This document shows positions 11,287 to 54,324 of a stretch of 64,000 bases of DNA, piece by piece (positions within the stretch are counted from its first letter, which is position 1; each line of letters opens with the position of its first letter). The position numbers and the translations under genes are program-made. A model generated the notes under the pieces. It was not told the DNA's origin. It made no database searches and worked only from the letters and a program-made list of their open reading frames with translations. The stretch is from Patescibacteria group bacterium (GTDB lineage Bacteria > Patescibacteriota > Patescibacteriia > 2-01-FULL-39-33). The stretch is taken from the NCBI GenBank assembly GCA_041649575.1, contig JBAZMW010000003.1, positions 58,102-122,101 of the forward strand, in the 5' to 3' direction.

Positions 11287-11315
11287 TTGACAAAATAAAA
11301 ATTAAATTATATAAT
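11287..11315 (+). promoter_or_regulatory. perfect consensus sigma70-type promoter TTGACA-N17-TATAAT
   Basis: ttgaca (11287-11292), 17-nt spacer, tataat (11310-11315); followed by a leader hairpin caggcttcaaaaagcctg and RBS GGGGAGG before the ATG at 11404. Confidence 0.6.
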
Positions 11316-11403
11316 AATATATGCTCTTTATAATTTGGATTTTGATAGTCTAATCCGAGGACAATAATTCAGGCTTCAAAAAGCCTGGGGGAGGATAAGT
11401 TAG

Positions 11404-13008
11404 ATGCAAGCAATACTGGAAGCGATCGAAACCGGCCTAGTAAGGGGCTGTGGAATATCCCTGACCGAGGCGATGAGTTCGCCACGATTCGTAAAGCTGC
11501 TGGCGAGGCAAAAGACCCTCTTTGAGCGTTACCCTAAGGACACTCACCGAGGAATCGCCCTAAGAGCCGGACATCTGGTCATGGGCCAGTTACTCAACAC
11601 CATGCCGGAATCGAAAGCTTTAGCCCAAGCTCGACGGATCAAAACACCGAAGTTCGGCTGCGGTATTGAGCTGCGCGCGCTGATCCAATTCTTTGGCGAA
11701 GCGCTAATTGTCGAAGCTGGCAAGTGCCTGCCAGACGAAGTGCTTGAATTGGCCAAGGAGTGGAGAGCGGCCACGGCGGAGAGACAGATTGAAATAGTCC
11801 GAGAACTATTCTTCATCTTTCGGTCGAAGAAACAAGGCGATGACCAAGAGATCATGACCCTCGCTCACGCTGAGCAAGATCTTATCCGTAAGGCCATGGA
11901 AAAGTGGAATCGAGGGTCTGACGCGCGAGATGTTTTACCAAGACTCTATGGCAAGTGGGACAGTAATTGTCCGGCTAACTGTCAGGGTAAGACGCAATTG
12001 CTAGTCGCCTTCGCGCACCTCGCCGGAACCAAGGCAATGGTTGTCAACGCTCTAAGCGACGGAGTACATGAGCTGTGGCGGTTAAGGGGTGAGTTGGCCG
12101 ACGCCATCTCTCAAGACATCAGACGGCGCGGCCTAGGCGGAGTCAGCTCGGAATTTGATGACAGCCTGGCTGGTCATCATTTCGCCGAGATTTTCAGGGA
12201 AAAGATTCGGGACTTCCATGTCGGTACGGCTTTGAGGCTAGGCGACGGGCGCTGGATCCTAATCGACCCGCACGCTCTTGCCTGGGGAGTTTTCTCTCCG
12301 CGCTGGCAGATGAACGAAACTCACCGACTGCTCCGAAAATACGCTGAAGTTTTGCCCGGACTGACGTTAACCCGCGATGATGGCGGAGAGGTCACGGACA
12401 AAATCAAGGCTAGGGCCGAAGTGTCTTACGACTTGATCGAGCGGTCGCGAAAGCTCGAGATTTTGCTTCGCGAACAGGTTCACTCCATGTCAGACTTCAT
12501 CGACATCGTTAAGGACTCAGAAGATTTCGATTTGCTGATGCGCCTCAACGCCGAACATGAAAGAACGACTTTTGTCCCATGGACCGATCCGAAGATAAGG
12601 TTTCTCGGCGTCGCTTCTGTGGTAGCCGGTGGAATGGACAAGCTCCATGACTTTCGGGCCATGATAGACCCAAAGTACCTAGAGCAACAAATAAAGTTGT
12701 GGCTATCATTCTACCACTGCGTGGCGGCCAATCACTTAGCGAACCAACTGGGTGACAATGGCGAGTTGGTCCATCTGGTTTGCGAGTTCAACGCCAGCCC
12801 GGAATACTATTTGGCACTGTCGGCGACCAACAGCATCATCGTGCGAGAAGATGAAGAGTCGGAATCGTTCTTCATTGATTACGGTTTCGACCAGCTCACT
12901 CTTTATAACACGATGATCCGGCGAAAGGAAGCGGCGGTCGCGGCGGCGGAGGTCGTCAAAACTCTGCCGTTTGTGCATGAGAATATGCGCACCAGATTTG
13001 GAATCTAA
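11404..13008 (+). CDS. hypothetical protein encoded in a GC-rich island (possible transglutaminase-like Cys-His-Asp core; speculative)
   Basis: 534-aa ORF in a region of about 56% GC with a strong RBS; NCQGKTQLLVAFAHLAG, HHFAEIF and GRWILIDPH loosely resemble the C/H/D motifs of transglutaminase-like cysteine peptidases. Confidence 0.55.
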   Translation: MQAILEAIETGLVRGCGISLTEAMSSPRFVKLLARQKTLFERYPKDTHRGIALRAGHLVMGQLLNTMPESKALAQARRIKTPKFGCGIELRALIQFFGEALIVEAGKCLPDEVLELAKEWRAATAERQIEIVRELFFIFRSKKQGDDQEIMTLAHAEQDLIRKAMEKWNRGSDARDVLPRLYGKWDSNCPANCQGKTQLLVAFAHLAGTKAMVVNALSDGVHELWRLRGELADAISQDIRRRGLGGVSSEFDDSLAGHHFAEIFREKIRDFHVGTALRLGDGRWILIDPHALAWGVFSPRWQMNETHRLLRKYAEVLPGLTLTRDDGGEVTDKIKARAEVSYDLIERSRKLEILLREQVHSMSDFIDIVKDSEDFDLLMRLNAEHERTTFVPWTDPKIRFLGVASVVAGGMDKLHDFRAMIDPKYLEQQIKLWLSFYHCVAANHLANQLGDNGELVHLVCEFNASPEYYLALSATNSIIVREDEESESFFIDYGFDQLTLYNTMIRRKEAAVAAAEVVKTLPFVHENMRTRFGI

Positions 13009-13038
13009 CGGCGGAAAAACAACGAGAGACGAGAGGAG

Positions 13039-13341
13039 GTGCAGACAGATATGATAGACACAAGGAGCTTTTCGCGAGAAGCCAAGGAATTGATGCGCCT
13101 GTGCCCTGTAAGTGAACACAGCGGGGAACCCACTGGTACGGACATCTCCACGGTAATTGCCGAACACCCCGAGCTCGTTTCAGGACTCTCCCAATATGTT
13201 TCCTGGGTCCGGGAGGTGGGCATGGCCATTGCGGAAACAACGACAACTCCGGCGATTGGCCACCCGGTTGCCAAGACTGTCCGGAAGGTACAGGCCCACG
13301 CCAGCGACGGCGACAAACCGAAATCCGAACCCCGCACCTAG
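13039..13341 (+). CDS. hypothetical small protein (100 aa), second gene of the GC-rich island
   Basis: RBS GAGGAGG 8 nt upstream of the ATG; same strand and composition as the upstream gene; a terminator follows. Confidence 0.35.
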   Translation: MQTDMIDTRSFSREAKELMRLCPVSEHSGEPTGTDISTVIAEHPELVSGLSQYVSWVREVGMAIAETTTTPAIGHPVAKTVRKVQAHASDGDKPKSEPRT

Positions 13342-13363
13342 TTGCGGGCGTACACAACACACA

Positions 13364-13406
13364 AAGCCCTGTCCGGCAGTAATGGACAGGGCTTCTTAAT
13401 TTTTAG
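13364..13406 (+). terminator. rho-independent terminator (aagccctgtcc ... ggacagggctt + T-run)
   Basis: 11-bp perfect stem with 10-nt loop followed by cttaattttta. Confidence 0.65.
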
Positions 13407-16603: not shown

Positions 16604-17623
16604 TTAAAAAACCCGTTCTAACTTATATAGCCAATAATAATTTAATAATCTCTCACGCACCTTATGACCATTGCCGTGGCTTAACAGCCCTAAATATGAT
16701 TGCAAAGTCGCGTTAGTCGGACTAATCTTAATTCTATTTATGGACTTTCTCTTGGTGGTATTCCGCAATACCCGATGGTCAGTAAAATGAACCCAACCAA
16801 GATAATCAACTCCCGAGGCCATTGTTCTTATGGATATTTTATTGGGATGAAGAGTGAGCTTTAATTCCTTAGACAAAAATTGACCTATTTCTGGTAATAT
16901 TTTTTCTAGATACTCTTTGTCGTCATTGAGAACCATAAAATCATCGGCATAGCGCAAGTAATATTTCACTTTTAATTTATGTTTTACCCATTGATCAAAA
17001 TCATTCATGTAGACATTGGCCAGTAGTTGCGAAGTGAGATTGCCAAGTGGCAGCCCGATATCCTGGCCGTAAATCTTACTATCATAACTCTCAATTACCT
17101 CGTCGAGCAGACTCATAATATCTCGGTCGGGAATATAGCGGGATAAGCTATCCATAAGGATTTTATGATCGATACTGTCAAAAAATTTCCTGATGTCACA
17201 TTTCAAAACCCAGCAGGTGCGAGAGTGATTTTTGCTTGTTTTGTAGGCCAAAGCACGGAATCTGTTCATCGCTTTATGCATTCCCTTATCATTGCGGCAA
17301 GAGAAAGAATCGGCGATAAAAGTCCTGTCAAAAAAGGGATAAAGAATTCGATAGATAGTATGATGAATCAAGCGGTCGCGGACGCTGGCTTTGTGGATAT
17401 GCCGACGCTTAGGATCGGTTATATAGAAATCAACATAGCCGCCATGACAGTATGTTCGATTGGCCAAATCCTCGTTTAATGATAAAATATTGTCGAGCAG
17501 GTTACGAGAAAATATTTGGACGTCCAGCTTCATTTTTTTGCCAACGATAAATTCTCGCCACGCGGAAAATAAATTTTCTAAATCAATAATCGAATTATAG
17601 TTATGGCTCAGTTGGATTTTCAT
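16604..17623 (-). CDS. DGR-type reverse transcriptase
   Basis: RT motifs including YADD (RYADDFMVL) and the DGR-specific GLPLGNLTSQLLANVY ([IV]GxxxSQ); N-terminal LENLFSAW. The start is chosen at the internal ATG (MKIQLSH...) downstream of the G10 tract; the track ORF extends to 17683. Confidence 0.85.
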   Translation of the reverse strand: MKIQLSHNYNSIIDLENLFSAWREFIVGKKMKLDVQIFSRNLLDNILSLNEDLANRTYCHGGYVDFYITDPKRRHIHKASVRDRLIHHTIYRILYPFFDRTFIADSFSCRNDKGMHKAMNRFRALAYKTSKNHSRTCWVLKCDIRKFFDSIDHKILMDSLSRYIPDRDIMSLLDEVIESYDSKIYGQDIGLPLGNLTSQLLANVYMNDFDQWVKHKLKVKYYLRYADDFMVLNDDKEYLEKILPEIGQFLSKELKLTLHPNKISIRTMASGVDYLGWVHFTDHRVLRNTTKRKSINRIKISPTNATLQSYLGLLSHGNGHKVRERLLNYYWLYKLERVF

Positions 17624-17639
17624 AATAATTCCTTTAAGT

Positions 17640-17649
17640 CCCCCCCCCC
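17640..17649. repeat. homopolymeric C10/G10 tract in the RT 5-prime region / avd-RT divergent intergenic region
   Basis: 10 consecutive C on the plus strand; lies about 17-26 nt upstream of the proposed RT start codon. Confidence 0.9.
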
Positions 17650-17674
17650 AACGGGTTTTGATAATTTTCCAATT

Positions 17675-17995
17675 TTGACGCAATTAAAGGAAGGGTATAA
17701 ATTGTGGCACGGCTTCTTAAATCGCCTGCCTCGCACTACGCGCTATACTCTGGGGACAAAAATCGATAATATCTTTACGGATTTAATTGCCACCGCCTTA
17801 ACCGCCAAGTTTGCCAGACAAGATGAAAAAATTATCAGGCTAAAACAAATCAGCGAGGGTCTTGATCATCTCAAATACTTTCTGACGATACTGTGGGAAA
17901 TAAAAGGGATAGACAGTGGCAAACTCTCCGCTTTGGGCAGTCGTCTGGCTGCCGTCGGAAAAATGGTCGGCGGATTACTCAAGTCAATTTCATAA
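17675..17995 (+). CDS. Avd-like accessory variability determinant (four-helix-bundle / 23S-IVS protein family)
   Basis: LPRTTRYTLGTKIDN and LGSRLAAVGKMVGGLLKSI match the FPKEEKYxLGxQIRR ... LxxLIKSL pattern of the four-helix-bundle family used as DGR Avd. The start is uncertain: TTG at 17675 or 17702 (the track ORF starts at 17603 and would overlap RT). The gene is on the strand opposite to RT, TR and target. Confidence 0.55.
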   Translation: MTQLKEGYKLWHGFLNRLPRTTRYTLGTKIDNIFTDLIATALTAKFARQDEKIIRLKQISEGLDHLKYFLTILWEIKGIDSGKLSALGSRLAAVGKMVGGLLKSIS

Positions 17996-18040
17996 AAAGG
18001 AAAAGAAGGTCTCAAAAACCTTCTTTTCCTTTTTATTTTC
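17996..18040. terminator. perfect 15-bp stem hairpin (aaaggaaaagaaggt / accttcttttccttt, 7-nt loop) + T-run
   Basis: starts 1 nt after the avd stop codon and lies 16 nt 3-prime of the TR on the other strand. Confidence 0.7.
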
Positions 18041-18047
18041 ACATCAT

Positions 18048-18155
18048 CAGGAGCACGAAGCCGATATTGTCGTTGCCATTCTCGTCCCAGTTGTTGCAGT
18101 TGAGCCCGTTGTCGTCGAAGTTGCCAGCAATGAGACGATTGCCGTCGTTCAAGGT
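18048..18155 (-). repeat. DGR template repeat (TR), 108 bp
   Basis: aligns to 18606-18713 with 21 mismatches; 20 of them are adenines on the minus (sense) strand of this copy. Read in the VR frame it encodes TLNDGNRLIAGNFDDNGLNCNNWDENGNDNIGFVL with 10 AAC/AAT codons. Confidence 0.85.
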
Positions 18156-18158
18156 CAA

Positions 18159-18557
18159 TCAATAGTTGTGAATATTGTCTTCCAAAACACCGCCCATTGA
18201 GTTCTCTCTGGGCTGAACCGTATTTGGGGTCATGAGCCCACCAACAATAAACACGGGGTGTGAAAAATGTCCTTGGGATAATTTCCTTGCTCTGGCGCGA
18301 TCCTTAGACAACGCCATTCGGAAGAATAAATTACCTTGTTCTGCGGGCTGGCGTCCGTGGAGACCAGCTAAGTTTAACTTCGCAGTAATGGTAATTATAT
18401 CACAATCGAAAATTTTTATGAAGATAGATATCTGCATTAGCTCCTCGGCTCGAAAATTTAAAAGATTACTTTTACATTTCTCTCGCTCTACGTCGCTTAT
18501 AAAAAAGAGAGGCCTCGGTGCGATGACCAAGGTCTCAAGTGTCCAAGTGTCCAACAA
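18159..18557 (-). CDS. hypothetical ORF between VR and TR (coding status doubtful)
   Basis: 132-aa ORF at the position where avd usually sits, but no four-helix-bundle-like sequence; may be non-coding TR-upstream sequence. Confidence 0.2.
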   Translation of the reverse strand: MLDTWTLETLVIAPRPLFFISDVEREKCKSNLLNFRAEELMQISIFIKIFDCDIITITAKLNLAGLHGRQPAEQGNLFFRMALSKDRARARKLSQGHFSHPVFIVGGLMTPNTVQPRENSMGGVLEDNIHNY

Positions 18558-18581
18558 TCCGAGGCGAGAGCGCCAAGGATC

Positions 18582-19310
18582 CTACTTACCGAGCTTCTCC
18601 ACCCCCAGGAGCACGAAGCCGATCATGCCGTCGCCACCCTCGCCCCAGTCGCGGCAGCGGAGCCCGACGCCGCCGAAGCCGCCAGCAATGAGACGACTGC
18701 CGTCGCGCAAGGTGTCAGACGCCATGTAGAGACGATTCAGCGGTACACGTTCGCCCGTACGCTTGAAATGCGCGAGGATAAGAGCGAACTGAAGCTGAAT
18801 CGAGCCGAATGTTGTGGCGTGATTACCGGGCAATTCGTAGCGCTGTTTGAGTTCGGCGCGGTGCTTTTCCATCGCTTTGATGTTCTTACCCGTGCTGTTT
18901 TCTGCCAGGCGAGGAATCCAGAACACCAAGCAATCGTCGGTGGGGTTGTCGTTGAAATTCCAGCTCTGGAGGTAGCCGAGATTCTCGTAGCAAGGACCGA
19001 CAATCGGGGCGTGCTTCTTCAACGTGAAGCCCTGCTTGATAAGCCATACAACAGGCCCCGTGTAGCCCATCAGAGCCGCCAGTTTACGCCAGGGGGCGAG
19101 ACGGTCTGTGAACTGTGGGAACTGCTCCAGCATCTTACTATCGGATAAGGGAATGGCGAAAGTATTCGCGATTTCTTCTTGCACGAGTGCGGCGAGGAAC
19201 TCTTTCACCTTTCCTGGCTTATCGGCAAAAACCGACATCTCTTCATCGCTGAGGCCATTAAGTGTGGCCAATACCGATACTGCACTTGCCTTACGGTCTG
19301 TCGTCTTCAT
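18582..19310 (-). CDS. DGR target (variable) protein, C-terminal VR; likely C-type-lectin / FGE-like fold
   Basis: 242 aa, about 58% GC; VR occupies the last about 43 codons before the stop (...GFVLLGVEKLGK*); the TR carries AAC codons at the variable sites. Confidence 0.8.
   Translation of the reverse strand: MKTTDRKASAVSVLATLNGLSDEEMSVFADKPGKVKEFLAALVQEEIANTFAIPLSDSKMLEQFPQFTDRLAPWRKLAALMGYTGPVVWLIKQGFTLKKHAPIVGPCYENLGYLQSWNFNDNPTDDCLVFWIPRLAENSTGKNIKAMEKHRAELKQRYELPGNHATTFGSIQLQFALILAHFKRTGERVPLNRLYMASDTLRDGSRLIAGGFGGVGLRCRDWGEGGDGMIGFVLLGVEKLGK
18606..18713 (-). repeat. DGR variable repeat (VR), 108 bp, at the 3-prime end of the target gene
   Basis: TR homolog in which TR adenines are replaced by G/C/T; encodes TLRDGSRLIAGGFGGVGLRCRDWGEGGDGMIGFVLL; followed by GC-rich GGGGTGGAGAAGCTCGG (IMH-like). 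Confidence 0.85.
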
Positions 19311-19512
19311 AACTTGCCTTTCTGCCTACCTGAGGCAGTATTCCCAACCACCATGGCCGAGAAAAAGATGGGGCATTCAGTGGTCCCAACTTTCTTTCTG
19401 CATAATTTACCCTGTAGGAATAGGCACTCAAATTCCACAGGGTTTATCTTAAATTAAACAAAAAGAAAGCTGGAACCTAAAACTTATCAATATATTAATG
19501 AACTAATAATAT

Positions 19513-19541
19513 ATTATACGGCATATGACAAAATTTGTCAA
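19513..19541 (-). promoter_or_regulatory. perfect consensus TTGACA-N17-TATAAT promoter upstream of the DGR target gene
   Basis: on the minus strand: TTGACA (19541-19536), 17-nt spacer, TATAAT (19518-19513); about 200-nt structured leader to the ATG at 19310. Confidence 0.55.
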
Positions 19542-28259: not shown

Positions 28260-28275
28260 AAAGTTATTATTTTGA

Positions 28276-28380
28276 TGTCATTGCGAGCGAAGCCCAAAGG
28301 GCGCAGCGAAGCAATCCCACGGGATCGCCACGGTCGTCCAGCCGGTTGTACCGGCTGGATAGCCTTAAGAGCGATGACAA
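28276..28380. repeat. structured intergenic repeat, copy 1 (GTCATTGCGAG ... GCAATCCCACGGGATCGCCACG ... CCGGttgtaCCGG ... GATGACAA)
   Basis: shares terminal and internal blocks with copy 2 at 31991-32076; both lie directly 5-prime of a minus-strand start codon. Confidence 0.6.
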
Positions 28381-28401: not shown

Positions 28402-29856
28402 TTAATCCGCCATTTCGGTTTGCTCGCCAAACAAATCAATTTTTTCTTTTTTAGCTTTGGCAATCACGCTATCGGCGATTTGGATATTAGCATCGCGCAG
28501 AGCCTTCTGGCTGGTAAAATTGGGCGCGTCCATCATCAGGTCGCGGCTATCACCGGTTTTGGGAAAAACAATCACTTCACGGATATTTGGTTCGTTCTGC
28601 AAAATAGCCACAATCCTATCAATGCCGGCGGCAATGCCTCCATGAGGCGGCGCGCCATACTCAAATGCTTCCAGCATATGACCAAAACGCGCCTTAATTT
28701 CTTGTTCACCCACACCCAATAGTTCAAAAACTTTTTTCTGAATATCGCGCCGATGAATTCTGATAGAGCCGCCATAAATTTCAAACCCGTTTAACACCAA
28801 ATCATAACCATAGGCCCTCCATTTTTGCGGCTCCTCTGGATATTTTTTCATATCTTCCAGATTTGGCATGGTAAAAGGATGGTGACTGGCCACTAATTTT
28901 TTTTCAGTTTTGGAATATTTGAACATCAGAGGGTCTATCAGCCACATAAAAGCCAGTTCACTAGGATCGTGTTTGTCAACTCTTAGATCCGGCTTATCGG
29001 TGCCGTATTTTTCCATACATTCTTCGTAAGTCAGGCGCGGAAATGGCTGCGCTGAGATATTCTTTTCCGGATAAAGCGTTTCTACTAACTTAATCATCAT
29101 GGGCTCAATCAGATTAAAAACGTCTTCCTGTTCGATAAAGCTCATTTCCACGTCCAGTTGAGTGAATTCGGCTTGCCGGTCGCCTCTGGTATCTTCGTCC
29201 CTAAAACACCTGGCGATTTGAAAATATTTTTCCGCACCGGCCACCATTAAGAGTTGCTTGAACTGCTGGGGCGACTGTGGCAAGACATAAAATTTGCCCG
29301 GCCAAAGCCTAGAAGGCACTATAAATTCTCTGGCCCCTTCCGGCGTGCCTTTGGTAAGAACCGGCGTTTCGATATCCAGAAATCCCAAATCCGTCAAATA
29401 ATCCCTGATAAACTTCACCACTTTGGAGCGCATAACCATGTTTTTGGTCATCCGCTGGGTGCGTAAATCAAGATAACGGTATTTGAGACGGGTTTCTTCG
29501 TTTACCTCGGCCGTGTTCTGGTCGATGGCAAAAGGCGGCGTCTTGGCTTCGTTTAAAATTTCAAGTTTGGTCACCAATAGCTCCACCGAGCCGGTGGCAA
29601 TTTTATCATTAATCATATTGGCCGGACGCTCATTGACAGTGCCGACAATGGCCACCACATACTCACTGCGCAGTTTCTCGGCCAAAGCGTGCGTTTCCTT
29701 GTTCGAGGGAATAAACACCACCTGCAAAATGCCGCTACGATCACGGACATCAATAAAAATCAATTTGCCATGATCGCGACGAGTGTGTACCCAACCCATG
29801 ATTTTCACCTCCTGACCTATCTTGTTTGTCACCTCCAAAATCGGAGTTCTTTGCAT
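28402..29856 (-). CDS. aspS: aspartyl-tRNA synthetase
   Basis: class II aaRS motifs (FRDEDTRGDRQAEFTQLD, GFEIYGGSIRIH, GGIAAGIDRIVAIL) and N-terminal OB fold. Confidence 0.9.
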   Translation of the reverse strand: MQRTPILEVTNKIGQEVKIMGWVHTRRDHGKLIFIDVRDRSGILQVVFIPSNKETHALAEKLRSEYVVAIVGTVNERPANMINDKIATGSVELLVTKLEILNEAKTPPFAIDQNTAEVNEETRLKYRYLDLRTQRMTKNMVMRSKVVKFIRDYLTDLGFLDIETPVLTKGTPEGAREFIVPSRLWPGKFYVLPQSPQQFKQLLMVAGAEKYFQIARCFRDEDTRGDRQAEFTQLDVEMSFIEQEDVFNLIEPMMIKLVETLYPEKNISAQPFPRLTYEECMEKYGTDKPDLRVDKHDPSELAFMWLIDPLMFKYSKTEKKLVASHHPFTMPNLEDMKKYPEEPQKWRAYGYDLVLNGFEIYGGSIRIHRRDIQKKVFELLGVGEQEIKARFGHMLEAFEYGAPPHGGIAAGIDRIVAILQNEPNIREVIVFPKTGDSRDLMMDAPNFTSQKALRDANIQIADSVIAKAKKEKIDLFGEQTEMAD

Positions 29857-30086
29857 AGACTAAAAAAGAAAATTTGTTAAAATTTGTTAAATTAATTATA
29901 ACAAAAATCGATTTTTTGTTCAATGAAAAAAAGCCACAAATTACCAATGAATCGCGACTTTAAAAATTCTTACCCCAAAAACATAAAAATTCTTAGTTAT
30001 TATGACTTTAAATTTGTTTAATATTTTAATTTTTAATTTTTTAATTTGTTTTTTATTTAAATTTAGCCAAAATAAATAACTAACCA

Positions 30087-30115
30087 TTGACACTAATTTT
30101 CAAAAATGATAGAAT
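30087..30115 (+). promoter_or_regulatory. near-consensus promoter TTGACA-N17-TAGAAT at the boundary of GC-rich island A
   Basis: ttgaca (30087-30092), 17-nt spacer, tagaat (30110-30115); the GC-rich segment starts about 6 nt downstream. Confidence 0.5.
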
Positions 30116-30520
30116 TTTTTATTGAGCGGCACAGTGCTGACTCAAAACCTCGAACATTACAAACAAGAGCGGAGGACAAATCCGTGTATATAAGGAACAT
30201 AGTTCCCGGACAGTTTGTTTAGTTCTTCTCCCAAGAAGACCCGCACGATGCGCGTAATGGCAAGAGACATCGCGTTGACAGCGTTGACGTGAGAGAGAGC
30301 ACTGTGACGCTGGACGTCTCCGAAGATGACGGCTACACGACTGATTTTGAGATAGTGGATTCTGTTAGTTGCTGGAGCCAGCCGGTAGAATTGTGCAGTT
30401 TCTAGTGCAGGAAGAGAAGGCTTGTGAGCGGCGCCGATCCTGGACGCGTCATAGCTTTCGTCCCCGAACCGCCAGCCACGGCCCCGTCCGTACCGGCCAA
30501 ACCATAGAAAGGGCGCGACC

Positions 30521-30860
30521 AATGAGATCAAGAAACGCGGTAGCACTGAAAGCGGGCCAGTTCTTGCTTTTTTCCCGAAGAATCGCTTCCGGGAAAAAGG
30601 TCATGGTAATGGGGCGTGTCAAAGAGATAAGCCCCAAAGGCGACCGTAAGCTGGACTACATCGACCTGGAACTGATGGACGAAGAAAGCCAGATCTGGCC
30701 GGACCACCGTGATTGCCATGACGGCGGCAGAGCAGCGACGCTCTCCCGGCTCCAAGAGCTCTACGGACCAGCGAGAATCACTACGCCCGAAGAAGCCGAG
30801 AGCTTCCAGATGAAAGTGCTGGCGAATCGCGTCGTTGCTATTGTCCGCTTCTTCTGGTGA
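30521..30860 (+). CDS. hypothetical ORF in GC-rich island A (coding status uncertain)
   Basis: 113-aa ORF from the first in-frame ATG; plus-strand direction fits the flanking promoter and terminator; overlapping ORFs of similar length on the minus strand are expected in 60% GC DNA. Confidence 0.25.
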
Positions 30861-30933
30861 CAACGCTGGAGGCGACGCCACAACCGTTGATGCTCTGCCA
30901 TTGCCGCCAGGAGGAAACATGCACATAACACAC

Positions 30934-30975
30934 CCGAGGTTGCGCACGCGCGCGACCCCGGGGTGATTTTTTTAT
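30934..30975 (+). terminator. rho-independent terminator (ggttgcgcacgcgcgcgacc ... ccggggtgattttttta)
   Basis: GC-rich stem plus T7 run; nearly identical to the terminator at 34601-34645. Confidence 0.65.
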
Positions 30976-30985
30976 AACAAAATTT

Positions 30986-31546
30986 CTAAAACAATCTTTC
31001 TACAAAACCGCAACCGCGAGCCGGCTTTTCTGACACCACCTCTATCAGCCGCTTGAGCTCAAAAAAAAGTTGTTTTTGGGTTTGGGCCTGAATTTTCGGC
31101 CGGTAACCCAAGTGCCTCAATAATTCGAAAAGATATTTGTTTAAAGATAATAAATTCTTGGTTTTTTCTTTTTCTTCGCTTAGAGAAAATAAGAATTTCT
31201 CAATAATTTCAAACAAAAAACCGTCAGCCGCCTCATGAATTATCAAACTATCAATCGCCGCCAAAAAATAATTGGCGATAACTATCTTATCCAGATCGGC
31301 TTTAATGGCCGAGTAATTTTTGGCAATGCCGGCGGCGGCCAGACGCTTTGACAGCTGGCCCTCGGCCAGCATTAAATCGCAAATCAAAAACGGCTCCAAA
31401 TGCGAATTGAGCTTGGAAGTGATTTTTTTGGCGCCCTTGGCAATGGCCGTCACCTTGCCAAATAAGCGGGTGTAGAGCGTGTACTGGCAATCATAGTCGC
31501 CGAGAGCGCATTTTTTGAGGACAATGGCTTGAGTGAGATAAGTCAT
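30986..31546 (-). CDS. recO: DNA repair protein RecO (short form)
   Basis: N-terminal OB-fold pattern (AIVLKKCALGDYDCQYTLYTRLFGKVTAIAKGAKK ... LEPF) and 186-aa size typical of compact RecO; moderate confidence. Confidence 0.55.
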   Translation of the reverse strand: MTYLTQAIVLKKCALGDYDCQYTLYTRLFGKVTAIAKGAKKITSKLNSHLEPFLICDLMLAEGQLSKRLAAAGIAKNYSAIKADLDKIVIANYFLAAIDSLIIHEAADGFLFEIIEKFLFSLSEEKEKTKNLLSLNKYLFELLRHLGYRPKIQAQTQKQLFFELKRLIEVVSEKPARGCGFVERLF

Positions 31547-31597: not shown

Positions 31598-31978
31598 TTA
31601 CTTGCTATCCAAATAACCCTGTAAGGTGAGCATAGCGGCCACATCATCGTCATGGCGGCCGGGCTTTAGCCTTTGTGCCTCCTTGCTGGTAAACCTCTCA
31701 TCATAAAAAACTAATTTTATTTTTAATTCTTGGGCCAAGCGCTCGCCGAAGTCTTTTGTCTTAAAGGTTTGCGGGGATTTTTGGGATTTTTTATTAAGCG
31801 GCAGACCGACAACCACTAGCTGTATTTTTTCCTTGTTAATTATTTCTCTAACTTCCAAGGCCAACCCATTAAAACCAGAATTTTTCAAAATTCCGTACGG
31901 CAAAGCCAGGCCGCTCTCTGTGTCGGCAATAGCCAAACCGATTTTTACTTCACCATAGTCGATGCCAAGTAGTTTCAT
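31598..31978 (-). CDS. ruvX: Holliday-junction resolvase-like YqgF/RuvX
   Basis: MKLLGIDYGEVKIGLAIAD N-terminus and RNase-H-like fold size. Confidence 0.8.
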   Translation of the reverse strand: MKLLGIDYGEVKIGLAIADTESGLALPYGILKNSGFNGLALEVREIINKEKIQLVVVGLPLNKKSQKSPQTFKTKDFGERLAQELKIKLVFYDERFTSKEAQRLKPGRHDDDVAAMLTLQGYLDSK

Positions 31979-31990
31979 GTCTGTTTACAG

Positions 31991-32076
31991 TGTCATTGCG
32001 AGGAGCGAAGCGATGTGGCAATCCCGTGGGATCCCCACGTCGCCCGGCCGAATGGCCGGACTCCTCGGGATGACAA
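31991..32076. repeat. structured intergenic repeat, copy 2
   Basis: TGTCATTGCGAGGAGCGAAGC ... GCAATCCCGTGGGATCCCCACG ... CCGGCCgaatGGCCGG ... GGGATGACAA; see copy 1. Confidence 0.6.
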
Positions 32077-32847
32077 TTAAATAGTAGTTATAATCTCTCC
32101 TCCCCTTTCTGTCACCGCGATCGTATGCTCAAAATGCGCCGAGAGCGAATTGTCTCTAGTGGCCACCGTCCAGCCGTCGTCCAAAGTTTCTACCGGCCAG
32201 TCGCCAAAATTAACCATTGGCTCTAGAGCCAAAGTCATACCAACCGCCAGCTTGATGTCGGCAAACCTCTTGTCCACATAATTGGGAATTTGCGGATCTT
32301 CGTGGGGAGAAAAACCGACTCCATGGCCGCACAATTGCCGCACAACACTAAAACCATTTTTTTCAACGTAATCTTGAATGGCGCGGGAAATGTCCGTCAA
32401 TTTATTGCCAGCTTTGGCCTGCCTAATGCCTTTAGACAAAGATTCTTCCGTGACGGAAATAAGTTTTCGGATTTGCCGGCCAACACTACCAACGGCGACT
32501 GTCTTGGCCATGTCGGTAAAAAGCCCGCGATACTCCAGGCCGCAATCAATACCAACGATGTCGCCGCTTTTAATAATCCTATTGGGAACCGGCAGGCCAT
32601 GCACCACTTCGTTATTTAACGAAAGGCAAAGAGCCGAGGGATAGGCATGCTCGGCCCAAGAAGCCCGATAACCCTTAAAACTTGGCTTGCCGCCGGCTTT
32701 TTTTATTAATTCTTCGGCATAAACACTCAATTCTTCGGTGCCAACGCCGGGTTTTATTTTTTTTATTACCAAAGCCAAAACCTGGGCGAGAATTTTCCCG
32801 CCCTGACGCATGGTGGCTATTTGTTGTTTATTTTTTAATTTAACCAT
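32077..32847 (-). CDS. map: methionine aminopeptidase type I
   Basis: pita-bread fold motifs (HGLPVPN, DIVGIDCG, CGHGVGFSPHEDP, HFEHTIAVT). Confidence 0.9.
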   Translation of the reverse strand: MVKLKNKQQIATMRQGGKILAQVLALVIKKIKPGVGTEELSVYAEELIKKAGGKPSFKGYRASWAEHAYPSALCLSLNNEVVHGLPVPNRIIKSGDIVGIDCGLEYRGLFTDMAKTVAVGSVGRQIRKLISVTEESLSKGIRQAKAGNKLTDISRAIQDYVEKNGFSVVRQLCGHGVGFSPHEDPQIPNYVDKRFADIKLAVGMTLALEPMVNFGDWPVETLDDGWTVATRDNSLSAHFEHTIAVTERGGEIITTI

Positions 32848-32932: not shown

Positions 32933-32961
32933 TTGACATTTAATTTTGGATATGATATAAT
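32933..32961 (+). promoter_or_regulatory. perfect consensus TTGACA-N17-TATAAT promoter of GC-rich island B
   Basis: ttgaca (32933-32938), 17-nt spacer, tataat (32956-32961); RBS AAGGAG then ATG at 33027. Confidence 0.6.
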
Positions 32962-33026
32962 TATATATTGGGTCGGCATCGCGCTGACTCGAGATTTTGG
33001 ACATTTTCAACCAAGGAGAAAGAGAA

Positions 33027-33380
33027 ATGAAACGATTTTTCAGCTTTTTGGAGCGGCTGTTCGCCGGCCTGAGTGCGATAGCTCTACTGCTCGGCCTGAT
33101 GTTTGTGGCCGGCATCTGTCTATCGCTGCCCTGGTACGGCTGGATTGCCAGCTTCCTGGCCGGCATCTTCACCGCAGGGATAAGAGTGATCCGCTGGCCG
33201 ATCAAAATCGCCTTGCTGGTAATCTGGGGGCCGATGATCATGGCTTTCGGCTACTACATCGTCTTCCCGATGGTCGGGCCGGTGAGTATCGTGCAGGGAG
33301 CGATCTGCTGGGTGATATTCATCACGGCGTTTGTGATGGCTCGCTGCGCCGCCGGCATCAAGGACATGCCAACGGACTGA
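33027..33380 (+). CDS. hypothetical small integral membrane protein (island B gene 1)
   Basis: AAGGAG RBS 7 nt upstream; about 4 TM helices (FAGLSAIALLLGLMFVAGICLSLPWYGWIASFLAGIF ... ). Confidence 0.5.
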   Translation: MKRFFSFLERLFAGLSAIALLLGLMFVAGICLSLPWYGWIASFLAGIFTAGIRVIRWPIKIALLVIWGPMIMAFGYYIVFPMVGPVSIVQGAICWVIFITAFVMARCAAGIKDMPTD

Positions 33381-33437
33381 AAAGGCCTATGAGCGGTGCC
33401 TTTGAAAACCGCTTAAGACAAAGAAGGAGTTGCAACC

Positions 33438-34055
33438 ATGATAGAACCTGTTGGTGTTATATTGTGCGGTATAGTGATCTTGGTCCTTGGGGTTGGGTGG
33501 AGTCTAATCTCAAGGAAGAGTCTGGAATTCTTCAGTTGCGTGACACTGGTGGTGCTGGCTGTCGGCCTGTACTTGTCAGTGTCCGATCACCAAATCCCCA
33601 AGACGTCATGGGGAGCCACCACGCCGGGCGCGATGATGCCCTACGACCAGAAACAAGCCACCGACGCGTTCGACGCATCGGCGAAGCAGGCACAAGGAGC
33701 TACAGGGTGTAGCGCCGGAGCAGAGCAAAGGACCGCTGTGACCGCACTGACCCGCGACGAAGAGACGGCGCTGGCCAGACAACGGAACGCAGCGGCCGCC
33801 CAAGAAAGCGGTGAAACAACCGCCGACAAGTGGCCGATGAAGGAGCTAGCCATCACTCCGCTGAGCAAGTGGTTTAACCAAAGGGAAAGCAAGGGGGGCT
33901 GGTCTTCCGTAAACTATGGCTCGTACCGGTGGGTGCGAGTGGATGATAGGCTGGGACTGCAGTCCCATACGGTATATGGCTGTGTGATTTCCTTCGTGCC
34001 AGAGCCGCCGGCCACGCCAGCGACAACGGCCGAAACAAAGGAGGACAAGCCATGA
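33438..34055 (+). CDS. hypothetical membrane-anchored protein (island B gene 2)
   Basis: AAGGAG RBS; two N-terminal TM helices then an Ala/Thr/Gln-rich soluble region; stop overlaps the next start (ATGA). Confidence 0.5.
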   Translation: MIEPVGVILCGIVILVLGVGWSLISRKSLEFFSCVTLVVLAVGLYLSVSDHQIPKTSWGATTPGAMMPYDQKQATDAFDASAKQAQGATGCSAGAEQRTAVTALTRDEETALARQRNAAAAQESGETTADKWPMKELAITPLSKWFNQRESKGGWSSVNYGSYRWVRVDDRLGLQSHTVYGCVISFVPEPPATPATTAETKEDKP

Positions 34056-34219
34056 CCACGACATGGTGGCAAGAATTGGGACGATATGAGTACGAGATTG
34101 AAGTCGGAGAGAACGGCGGCCAACACTACACCGGCCGCCATCGCTGTGTTGGCGGACAATTGGCAGATGGCCGGTGGCCGATCTTTGGTGACAAGTCTGG
34201 CGAGACGGTTTACGCCTGA
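34052..34219 (+). CDS. hypothetical 55-aa ORF (island B gene 3), translationally coupled
   Basis: ATGA overlap with the upstream stop; MTTTWWQELGRYEYEIEVGENGGQHYTGRHRCVGGQLADGRWPIFGDKSGETVYA. Confidence 0.25.
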   Translation: MTTTWWQELGRYEYEIEVGENGGQHYTGRHRCVGGQLADGRWPIFGDKSGETVYA

Positions 34220-34232
34220 AAGGAGACGCGCC

Positions 34233-34586
34233 ATGCAATTCGTACTGAAAGTTGATGACGGTGTGAAAGAGCCGCCGACGCTGCGGGATGCCATCCTGGC
34301 GGCTAAGAAGCTGGCCCACTATGACGCCTTGGTGGCTTTCCTGGCCACTCAGAAAATGACCGAGCCAGGAAGAAAGCGACTGGCCGCTAACGCGGTAGTG
34401 GAAGCAATTGGCCACCTCTGGGTGCAGCCGCCAGGCAAGTGGGCCCAACAAGTGCGAAGTTTTGTGGCGGTCGAAGTTGGCGTCAATAGCGCCATAACGC
34501 TTGAAGACTCCCCGTGTCTCGACTTCCCTGTCTTCAACGTGGAGCCAGAGCGGCCGCCCTCGGTTCCGCCCGAACCCGAGTCCTAA
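34233..34586 (+). CDS. hypothetical protein (island B gene 4)
   Basis: AAGGAG RBS 8 nt upstream of the ATG at 34233 (the track ORF begins earlier at 34086 in the same frame); ends 15 nt before the terminator. Confidence 0.4.
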   Translation: MQFVLKVDDGVKEPPTLRDAILAAKKLAHYDALVAFLATQKMTEPGRKRLAANAVVEAIGHLWVQPPGKWAQQVRSFVAVEVGVNSAITLEDSPCLDFPVFNVEPERPPSVPPEPES

Positions 34587-34600
34587 CCGTACATTCGATC

Positions 34601-34645
34601 CCCTGGGGTTGCGCACTTGCGCGACCCCGGGGTAATTTTTTTATA
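34601..34645 (+). terminator. rho-independent terminator (ggggttgcgc-actt-gcgcgacccc + T-run)
   Basis: 10-bp GC stem (one G-U), 4-nt loop, then ggggtaattttttta; near-identical to 30934-30975. Confidence 0.7.
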
Positions 34646-34928: not shown

Positions 34929-35606
34929 CTATTTCCACCCCACTTTGCTTCTTAAATCCTCCACCATCCGCCTGACCAGCTGCTGAAAAACAGCTTCAAT
35001 ATGCTTCTCGCCGTCGATCTCTATCAGCAGCCCTTTGTCTCGATAAAATTTTATAATACCATCCATCTCTCGATGATAAATTTCCAGCCGGTTCGTCACT
35101 ACCTCTTCTTTGTCGTCATCGCGCTGAAACAGCGGTTCGCCGCAATTATCACAAATTCCCTCTGTTTTTGGCGGTGAATATTTGATGTGCCAGGAATGGC
35201 CATTTTTGCACACCCGGCGACCAGACATTCTCTCGACTATTGTCTCATCGGAAACCTTAACCAAGAAAACATAATCCACATCCACATTCTTGTCTAAGAA
35301 ATCCGCCTGATCCAAAGTCCTCGGACAGCCATCCAGGACATAACCGAATTTACAGTCGTCTTTTTTTATTCTTTCGACAACCAAATGATCAACCACTTCT
35401 GTTGGCACCAACTGTCCCTTTTCGATATAAGCCTTGACCTCGGCGGACAAAGGGTGACTGGAATCATTTTTTATGGACGAAAGGATTTGGCCAGAAGAAA
35501 CATGAGGGATATCAAAAGTTTTGGCCAATAGACCGGCCTGGGTGCCTTTGCCGGAAACTGGCGGACCTAAGACAATGATCTCAAATGGTTTTTCGTTTTG
35601 AAACAT
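34929..35606 (-). CDS. adk: adenylate kinase (zinc-lid type)
   Basis: P-loop GPPVSGKGTQ, NMP-binding region, LID with CKNGHSWH ... CDNCGE. Confidence 0.9.
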   Translation of the reverse strand: MFQNEKPFEIIVLGPPVSGKGTQAGLLAKTFDIPHVSSGQILSSIKNDSSHPLSAEVKAYIEKGQLVPTEVVDHLVVERIKKDDCKFGYVLDGCPRTLDQADFLDKNVDVDYVFLVKVSDETIVERMSGRRVCKNGHSWHIKYSPPKTEGICDNCGEPLFQRDDDKEEVVTNRLEIYHREMDGIIKFYRDKGLLIEIDGEKHIEAVFQQLVRRMVEDLRSKVGWK

Positions 35607-53946: not shown

Positions 53947-54324
53947 TTATAAAAGTAATTCTTTGATTTTTTGAATGACTTCTGCGGGAGTATGCTGGGA
54001 TTTAACAAAATAATCAGCCGCACCGGCTTGCATTCCTTTGTCTCTATCTGATTCCTGGCCCAAATTGGTCAGAAGCAGCACGGGTATATCTTTGGTGCTG
54101 TCATCGCTCTTAAGGCTATCCAGTATTGTAAAACCATCTGTTTCTGGTAAAATCACGTCCAAAAGGATAATGGCAAATTTATTTTCTTTAGCCAGCTCCA
54201 GAACTTCGCTCCCCTTTTCGGTCACCATAACCTCATAACCCTCCTCTTCTAAACGCAATTTATACATCTCGACAATCATTGGATCGTCTTCAACCAACAA
54301 AACTTTATTCTTTGTTTCTTCCAT
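53947..54324 (-). CDS. single-domain response regulator (CheY-like receiver)
   Basis: KVLLVEDDP ... phospho-acceptor Asp in ILLDVILPETDG ... conserved K near the C-terminus. Confidence 0.8.
   Translation of the reverse strand: MEETKNKVLLVEDDPMIVEMYKLRLEEEGYEVMVTEKGSEVLELAKENKFAIILLDVILPETDGFTILDSLKSDDSTKDIPVLLLTNLGQESDRDKGMQAGAADYFVKSQHTPAEVIQKIKELLL

Follow-up and report, generated by a model that had tools for sequence, protein, structure and literature searches.

A GC-rich island with its own promoter and terminator motifs in a housekeeping gene block of a Patescibacteria genome, and its longer protein-coding paralogue

Introduction

The phage moron is an independent transcription unit inserted between phage genes (as summarised in PMC2920897). 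The locus described here—island A, a GC-rich segment among housekeeping genes of a Patescibacteria (CPR) genome—resembles this arrangement in several respects. On the level of motifs, it bears its own promoter (11 of 12 consensus matches) and its own intrinsic terminator (dG −26.9 kcal/mol); with 55.7% GC against 43–47% in its flanks, it is wedged into a conserved gene block; and the function of its cargo is unassigned and probably accessory. In contrast to phage morons, its flanks are cellular housekeeping genes (aspS, recO, ruvX, map, and adk), no island product matches a PHROG or a phage protein, and the unit is found in no other genome or phage scanned. As these surroundings are not those of a phage, island A works like a moron but does not belong to the class.

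Three further types of loci invite comparison. The large noncoding RNAs of Rfam (OLE, GOLLD, HEARO, and ROOL) share with island A the GC-rich promoter-to-terminator unit, the poverty in long ORFs, and the AT-rich genome. Island A differs from them in having no covariance-model match, no excess stability in its ORF-poor half, and codon-position signals in its sequence. ORFan islets and laterally acquired genes resemble it in their atypical composition, their lack of homologues, their absence from syntenic relatives, and their partial decay, whereas the regulatory shell of island A has a duplicate in its own genome and is much more conserved than the cargo. Lastly, targets of diversity-generating retroelements (DGRs) come to mind, since island A is a GC-rich, strongly promoted small gene in a CPR genome with a DGR 11 kb away; unlike such targets, it bears no repeat of the template region (18048–18155), and no sequence resembling a variable repeat precedes its terminator hairpin.

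Genomic setting and synteny

The window—the whole stretch of DNA that was analyzed—comprises 64 kb of a Patescibacteria metagenome-assembled genome (locus tags WC518_) with 42.3% GC and nearly all genes on the minus strand. This strand carries aspS (28402–29856), recO (30986–31546), ruvX (31598–31978), map (32077–32847), and adk (34929–35606), the last followed by secY and the ribosomal protein operon. Island A occupies the 1129-nt gap between recO and aspS. A second GC-rich segment, island B (32933–34645, plus strand), lies about 2 kb away between adk and map. An independent Logan assembly of 13.6 kb (L001) contains both islands at 100% identity and with the same junctions, so that island A is no assembly chimera.

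Two palindromic elements were noticed in the same gene block. One, GC-rich and intergenic (TGTCATTGCGAGCGAAGC...AAGAGCGATGACA, 28275–28380), lies downstream of aspS and has a perfect 25-nt inverted match in a response-regulator-like ORF 25.7 kb away (54099–54123); a similar, “VIARSEA”-type element seemingly sits between ruvX and map (about 31985–32075).

The gene order around the islands is conserved beyond this genome. The gap between adk and map ranges from −4 to 255 nt in the 56 metagenomic loci that carry both genes on the same strand, as compared with 2081 nt here, where island B fills the gap on the opposite strand. The nearest available relatives are distant—Map is about 50% identical in the two contigs L002 and L003—and a RecO-based search of GTDB genomes yielded no close ones. 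Both contigs share the order map–ruvX–recO–aspS and bear a small AT-rich ORF on the same strand between recO and aspS, with no GC-rich island. The initial annotation had suggested a comparison with other CPR genomes; by blastn and tblastx, 80 Map-centred metagenome loci contain nothing resembling islands A–D. Given this synteny without islands in the relatives, A and B look like lineage-specific insertions.

Promoter, composition, and 5′ leader

The island opens with a sigma-70-type promoter on the plus strand (TTGACA-17-TAGAAT, 30087–30115) that matches the consensus at 11 of 12 positions, carries a TG-extended −10 element, and is homologous to the promoter of island B (32933–32961). This is where the initial annotation had placed it, at the start of the GC-rich segment. 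Six sites with at least 11 of 12 matches occur in the 64-kb window, whereas Markov simulations produce 1.6 on average and at most 4, and four of these six lie at the 5′ edge of a GC-rich island. Within the first 58 kb, the starts of the four GC-rich islands (11287, 19541, 30087, and 32933) are in fact the only sigma-70 promoters with 11 or 12 matches. The foreign-looking GC-rich genes own the best promoters of this genome.

Near the predicted transcript start at about 30122, the composition switches sharply from a spacer of 17.8% GC to 55.7% GC (30122–30965; 56.4% if counted from 30190), a value reached by just 1.5% of 845-nt windows. The GC-rich segment is therefore real, although the 60% originally given for it is slightly high.

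The leader opens, at the predicted +1 of the transcript, with a hairpin (UUGAGCGGCACAGUGCUGACUCAA, 30122–30145, plus strand) of the form UUGAG-CGGC...GCUG-A-CUCAA. Its counterpart in island B (32968–32992) differs by pair-preserving changes only: an A-U pair becomes G-U, a U-A pair becomes U-G, and an inserted U pairs with the A that is bulged in island A. The leader can be described by the motif ATTGNG(N)CGGCANNGNGCTGACTC. The conserved hairpin is most plausibly an mRNA-stabilising stem-loop or the operator of a repressor, or of another regulator binding there.

Terminator

The island ends in an intrinsic terminator on the plus strand (30929–30973), which consists of a GC-rich hairpin (30929–30965) and a run of seven T (30967–30973), with a folding energy of −26.9 kcal/mol and a z-score of −5.8. 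The GC-hairpin/T7 terminator of the initial annotation is thereby borne out, and with it the whole original observation of promoter, GC-rich island, terminator, and ORFs. Only 12 nt separate the end of the terminator from the stop codon of the convergent recO. On the minus strand, a run of A precedes the terminator, which may hence also end the convergent map–ruvX–recO transcript.

The terminator of island B (34602–34645) is 82–89% identical. The window contains the hairpin twice, neither leader nor terminator recurs in the 10 kb that adjoin its right end, and a scan of public genome, viral, and metagenome collections for the terminator motif (GGTTGCGCACNNGCGCGACCCCGGGGT) found it absent. With two copies in the window and none in the extra 10 kb, the hairpin was rejected as a REP-like repeat.

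Island B and its relation to island A

Island B is plainly protein-coding. Downstream of a perfect TTGACA-17-TATAAT promoter, it encodes four ORFs of 117, 205, 55, and 117 aa, two of which overlap as ATGA. They show codon-position periodicity with a GC3 of 0.61–0.79, and each is preceded by an AAGGAG or AGGAGG site 7–8 nt upstream. All four products are orphans, and two have predicted transmembrane N-termini.

The comparison with island B that the initial annotation had proposed revealed a common shell. Three alignments connect the islands: about 110 nt of AT-rich upstream DNA together with the promoter and the 5′ leader at 70–77% identity, 45–63 nt of the terminator at 82–89% identity, and one internal segment of 39 nt. 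This internal segment encodes a 13-codon motif, GRVIAFVPEPPAT in island A (30442–30480) and GCVISFVPEPPAT in island B, where it forms the C-terminal tail of the 205-aa protein. The Smith-Waterman score of the VIxFVPEPPAT motif is 58 as compared with 26.9 ± 4.2 in shuffles, and none of 1000 shuffles reaches 58. Eleven nucleotide differences separate the two versions over the 13 codons, nine in third and none in second codon positions, a pattern characteristic of a translated sequence under selection. Island A is hence a shortened sister, i.e. a paralogue, of island B. A further relation, between the island A product a4 and the proteins of island B, was considered and not established: b4 comes nearest, with a score of 35 as compared with 25 ± 4 (p about 0.03).

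The disparity between ends and interior might also be described as a mobile or recombining expression shell, in which cargo is swapped at conserved ends and the interiors differ by cassette exchange instead of divergence. Consistent with this reading, the ends are 70–89% identical while the interiors share only 39 nt, both islands interrupt conserved housekeeping synteny, share one orientation, and lie 2 kb from each other, and all four GC-rich islands of the window begin at consensus promoters. However, 64 kb plus 10 kb contain only two copies, the terminator motif is missing from the scanned genome, viral, and metagenome collections, the Pfam listings for 10.8–19.6 kb and 28.3–41.9 kb of the window include no integrase or transposase, and neither target-site duplications nor terminal inverted repeats can be seen. 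In addition, the shared internal motif makes the cargoes at least partly homologous. We therefore regard such a shell as quite unlikely.

ORFs and coding signal of island A

All tiny ORFs of 12, 14, and 15 aa in the initial annotation are present in island A, on the plus strand. The 12-codon ORF (30184–30222) starts with GTG, is preceded by GGAGG 8 nt upstream (ORF and site together span 30171–30222), ends with TAG 30220–30222, and corresponds in position to the start of the first gene of island B. The 15-codon ORF (30919–30966; 30909–30966 with its AGGAGG 4 nt upstream) starts with ATG, runs into the terminator hairpin, and is without counterpart in island B. Between them, frame 1 contains a stretch (30223–30405) with coding-like codon usage and GC periodicity, bordered by TAG 30220 upstream and by TAG 30403 at its end. 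Its first available start is GTG 30289, which opens a 38-aa ORF (30289–30405), so that the coding-like part begins 66 nt ahead of the first possible start codon. The 14-aa ATG ORF (30248–30292) overlaps this stretch in another frame and shares GTGA (30289–30292) with the 38-codon ORF. Further downstream in frame 1 follows a 27-codon ORF (30424–30507) that contains the shared motif. Taken as a whole, frame 1 is interrupted only by the in-frame TAGs at 30220 and 30403 between the Shine-Dalgarno-led GTG 30184 and TAG 30507.

The sole intact ORF of sizeable length (30522–30860, plus strand) encodes 112 aa from ATG 30522 or 83 aa from ATG 30609. GenBank/NCBI lists the long version as a hypothetical protein (WC518_02750), while the JGI, Logan, and ENA calls give 83 aa. 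A 13-bp hairpin (30566–30601, plus strand; dG −18 kcal/mol, z-score −2.7) lies within the 5′ extension, and its 3′ arm holds the ribosome-binding site GGGAAAAAGG for the ATGs at 30603 and 30609. The ribosome-binding sites of the intact ORF are weak; the two strong ones of island A precede the 12- and 15-codon ORFs.

Coding potential was scored by a codon log-likelihood model trained on seven ORFs of other GC-rich islands and applied to island A. The segment 30609–30857 reaches 26.2, which is above 98% of true-frame windows and is attained by none of 493 wrong-frame windows; its GC contents of 0.63, 0.40, and 0.69 at the three codon positions show a bias typical of genes of the same composition. 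Frame 1 from 30223 to 30402 scores 10.8, a value typical of true frames and reached by 2% of wrong-frame windows. The 29-codon 5′ extension of the long ORF (30522–30608) scores −1.4 and is not coding-like, and neither the 12- nor the 15-codon ORF shows a codon signal. GC by codon position is concordant with these scores across the segments of island A. The equally long opposite-strand ORFs of the initial annotation exist as well (129 and 139 aa), but with a log-likelihood of about 0 per codon they bear no coding signal.

What had been described as a weakly supported 113-aa ORF (112 aa plus the stop codon) thus falls into two parts: the doubt holds for the first 29 codons, which are non-coding-like and contain the hairpin, but not for the sequence from 30609 on, which is strongly coding. 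Frame 1 is read as a gene remnant, in which nonsense mutations cut short one gene or two. By our own estimate, a random frame of this GC content would have a chance of about 24% of containing two stops in 107 codons; as two stops are thus not improbable, the pseudogene reading of frame 1 hangs on codon usage and on the motif. Read-through or recoding of TAG was rejected: recO itself ends in TAG, the window contains no suppressor tRNA, and in the alignment with island B, the terminal TAG of the motif ORF falls on the TGA that ends the 205-aa gene.

Alternatively, island A could be a functional operon of microproteins, in which the 12-, 14-, 15-, and 38-codon ORFs, the 27-aa motif peptide, and the 83-aa ORF are all translated and selected. 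The strong GGAGG and AGGAGG sites ahead of the 12- and 15-codon ORFs and the GTGA overlap that couples the 14- and 38-codon ORFs fit such an operon. So does the VIxFVPEPPAT motif, which was kept with synonymous-type changes while the rest of the interior diverged beyond recognition and hence speaks for persistent selection on the peptide in island A. However, the coding-like stretch of frame 1 begins well before any possible start codon, the homologous motif of island B belongs to the end of a 205-aa protein instead of forming a free peptide, the 12- and 15-codon ORFs bear no codon signal, and nothing in island B corresponds to the 15-codon ORF. On balance, we consider a microprotein operon unlikely and prefer to read island A as a coding cassette that is partly decayed.

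Search for homologues

The long ORF product is an orphan. The homology check foreseen by the initial annotation returned no protein homologue: a search with the 112-aa product against 5.8 billion proteins found only the self-match, and an exhaustive search of 1.84 billion representatives gave no homologue and a single extra match (P0052). This match was rejected as a repeat or low-complexity artefact, being a match over a low-complexity stretch of 44 residues to a eukaryote-like protein of five repeats. A PDB sequence search and a tblastn search of phages with the 112-aa product were likewise negative. No ORF of the islands has a significant match in Pfam, PHROGs, PADLOC, or NCBIfam, the 205-aa protein of island B is without detectable homologues, the back-translated peptide motif is absent from viral contigs, and island A has no blastn match among plasmid records. 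An AlphaFold single-sequence model reached a pLDDT of 49 and was unusable.

Conservation on the protein level is hence confined to the 13-codon motif shared with island B. Since no tested product of either island has a homologue, the designation “protein-coding” is built on statistics and on one paralogue.

Is island A a structured RNA?

GC-rich islands of AT-rich genomes sometimes encode large structured or regulatory noncoding RNAs, and the initial annotation had named such an RNA as one candidate for the island. Some properties agree with this notion for the entire transcript or for its ORF-poor 5′ 400 nt: the latter contain no intact, well-initiated ORF, the island is GC-rich within an AT-rich genome, and the whole 854-nt transcript folds with a z-score of −3.3 (20 shuffles). 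This stability is largely due to the terminator and to the hairpin at the ribosome-binding site. The ORF-poor 5′ half itself (404 nt) has a z-score of only −1.5, with 5 of 100 shuffles folding as well.

The Rfam search proposed along with this candidate was negative. At the gathering thresholds of Rfam 15, the window yields four tRNAs and nothing else, and covariance scans at E ≤ 1 find no match in 29900–31100 nor in island B. Moreover, the GC periodicity and codon usage of frame 1 together with the third-position substitutions of the motif point to constraint on the protein level, and paralogue B is packed with Shine-Dalgarno-led ORFs. A large structured RNA is therefore highly improbable. 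The other two candidates of the initial annotation—a degraded cargo gene and a small-protein locus—fare better, in that island A is paralogous to a coding island, contains a motif with synonymous-type changes, shows a codon signal in two frames, and retains one intact ORF.

Other GC-rich islands and the diversity-generating retroelement

Two further loci of the window combine GC-rich genes with strong promoters. Island C (11287–13400) extends from a perfect consensus promoter (11287–11315) to a terminator (13364–13394) and encodes proteins of 534 aa (11404–13008) and 96 aa (13051–13341). The former belongs to a CPR-specific family of 40 clusters without a Pfam domain, and an ORF of about 90 aa again follows the family member in the two other contigs that were read (L082 as DNA and P0012 as gene calls only). 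In L082, the pair has 45–49% GC as compared with about 30% in the flanks and is preceded by a TTGACA promoter.

The second locus is a complete DGR (16604–19541). It comprises a reverse transcriptase of the RVT_1 type (16604–17683, minus strand), the accessory gene bAvd (within 17603–17995, plus strand), a template repeat (18048–18155), and a variable repeat (18606–18713) at the 3′ end of the GC-rich 242-aa gene WC518_02675 (18582–19310, minus strand), whose promoter is a perfect TTGACA-17-TATAAT (19541–19513). In the core of the repeats, 20 of 21 mismatches fall on template adenines. These two repeats form the sole template–variable pair and have no copy in island A, which was hence rejected as a remote DGR target.

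Integron attC sites follow the pattern RYYYAAC ... GTTRRRY and come with a nearby integron integrase. The 3′ hairpin of island A (GTTGCGC...GCGCGAC) shows neither the required order of these elements nor the AAC/GTT cores, and the Pfam listings for 10.8–19.6 kb and 28.3–41.9 kb of the window contain no integrase; an attC site and an integron cassette were thus both rejected.

Discussion

We consider it reasonably probable that island A represents a self-contained, moron-like cassette of protein-coding DNA in a CPR chromosome—a shortened, partly decayed paralogue of island B that was acquired laterally or duplicated. Judged from its motifs, the island would be transcribed as follows. The near-consensus sigma-70 promoter would fire divergently from aspS and produce an mRNA of about 850 nt from about 30122, whose 5′-end stem-loop is probably a stabilising element or an operator. 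Transcription would then stop at the strong hairpin and the T7 run, shortly before the convergent recO.

The cargo is most likely a lineage-specific coding sequence of foreign composition (about 56% GC) and probably of foreign origin. Its upstream part might represent one or more decayed genes, with frame 1 from GTG 30184 to TAG 30507 broken by two TAGs and still keeping the C-terminal VIxFVPEPPAT tail of the 205-aa membrane protein of island B; decay, as opposed to a set of functional micro-ORFs, is what we infer from this arrangement. One small, soluble orphan protein (83–112 aa, 30522/30609–30860) would have remained intact, with translation of the 83-aa ORF probably gated or limited by the hairpin in which its ribosome-binding site is sequestered.

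A more far-reaching proposal takes islands A and B as two copies of an undescribed chromosomal “moron” of CPR bacteria, whose shell from promoter and leader to terminator is copied or recombined into housekeeping operons, with fast-evolving small-protein cargo and with the 5′ stem-loop as a common regulatory handle. We regard this as a long shot.

At present, island A amounts to another orphan gene, listed in GenBank as hypothetical and flanked by decayed genes, and not to a new class of RNA. CPR bacteria have small genomes in which proteins of unknown function abound. Self-promoted cassettes of foreign composition within conserved operons, like the one between adk and map, show how these genomes gain and lose accessory genes, and such cassettes likely encode factors for the interaction with hosts or phages. 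If the shared shell were a reusable mobile module, it would constitute a new route of gene delivery in the CPR radiation.
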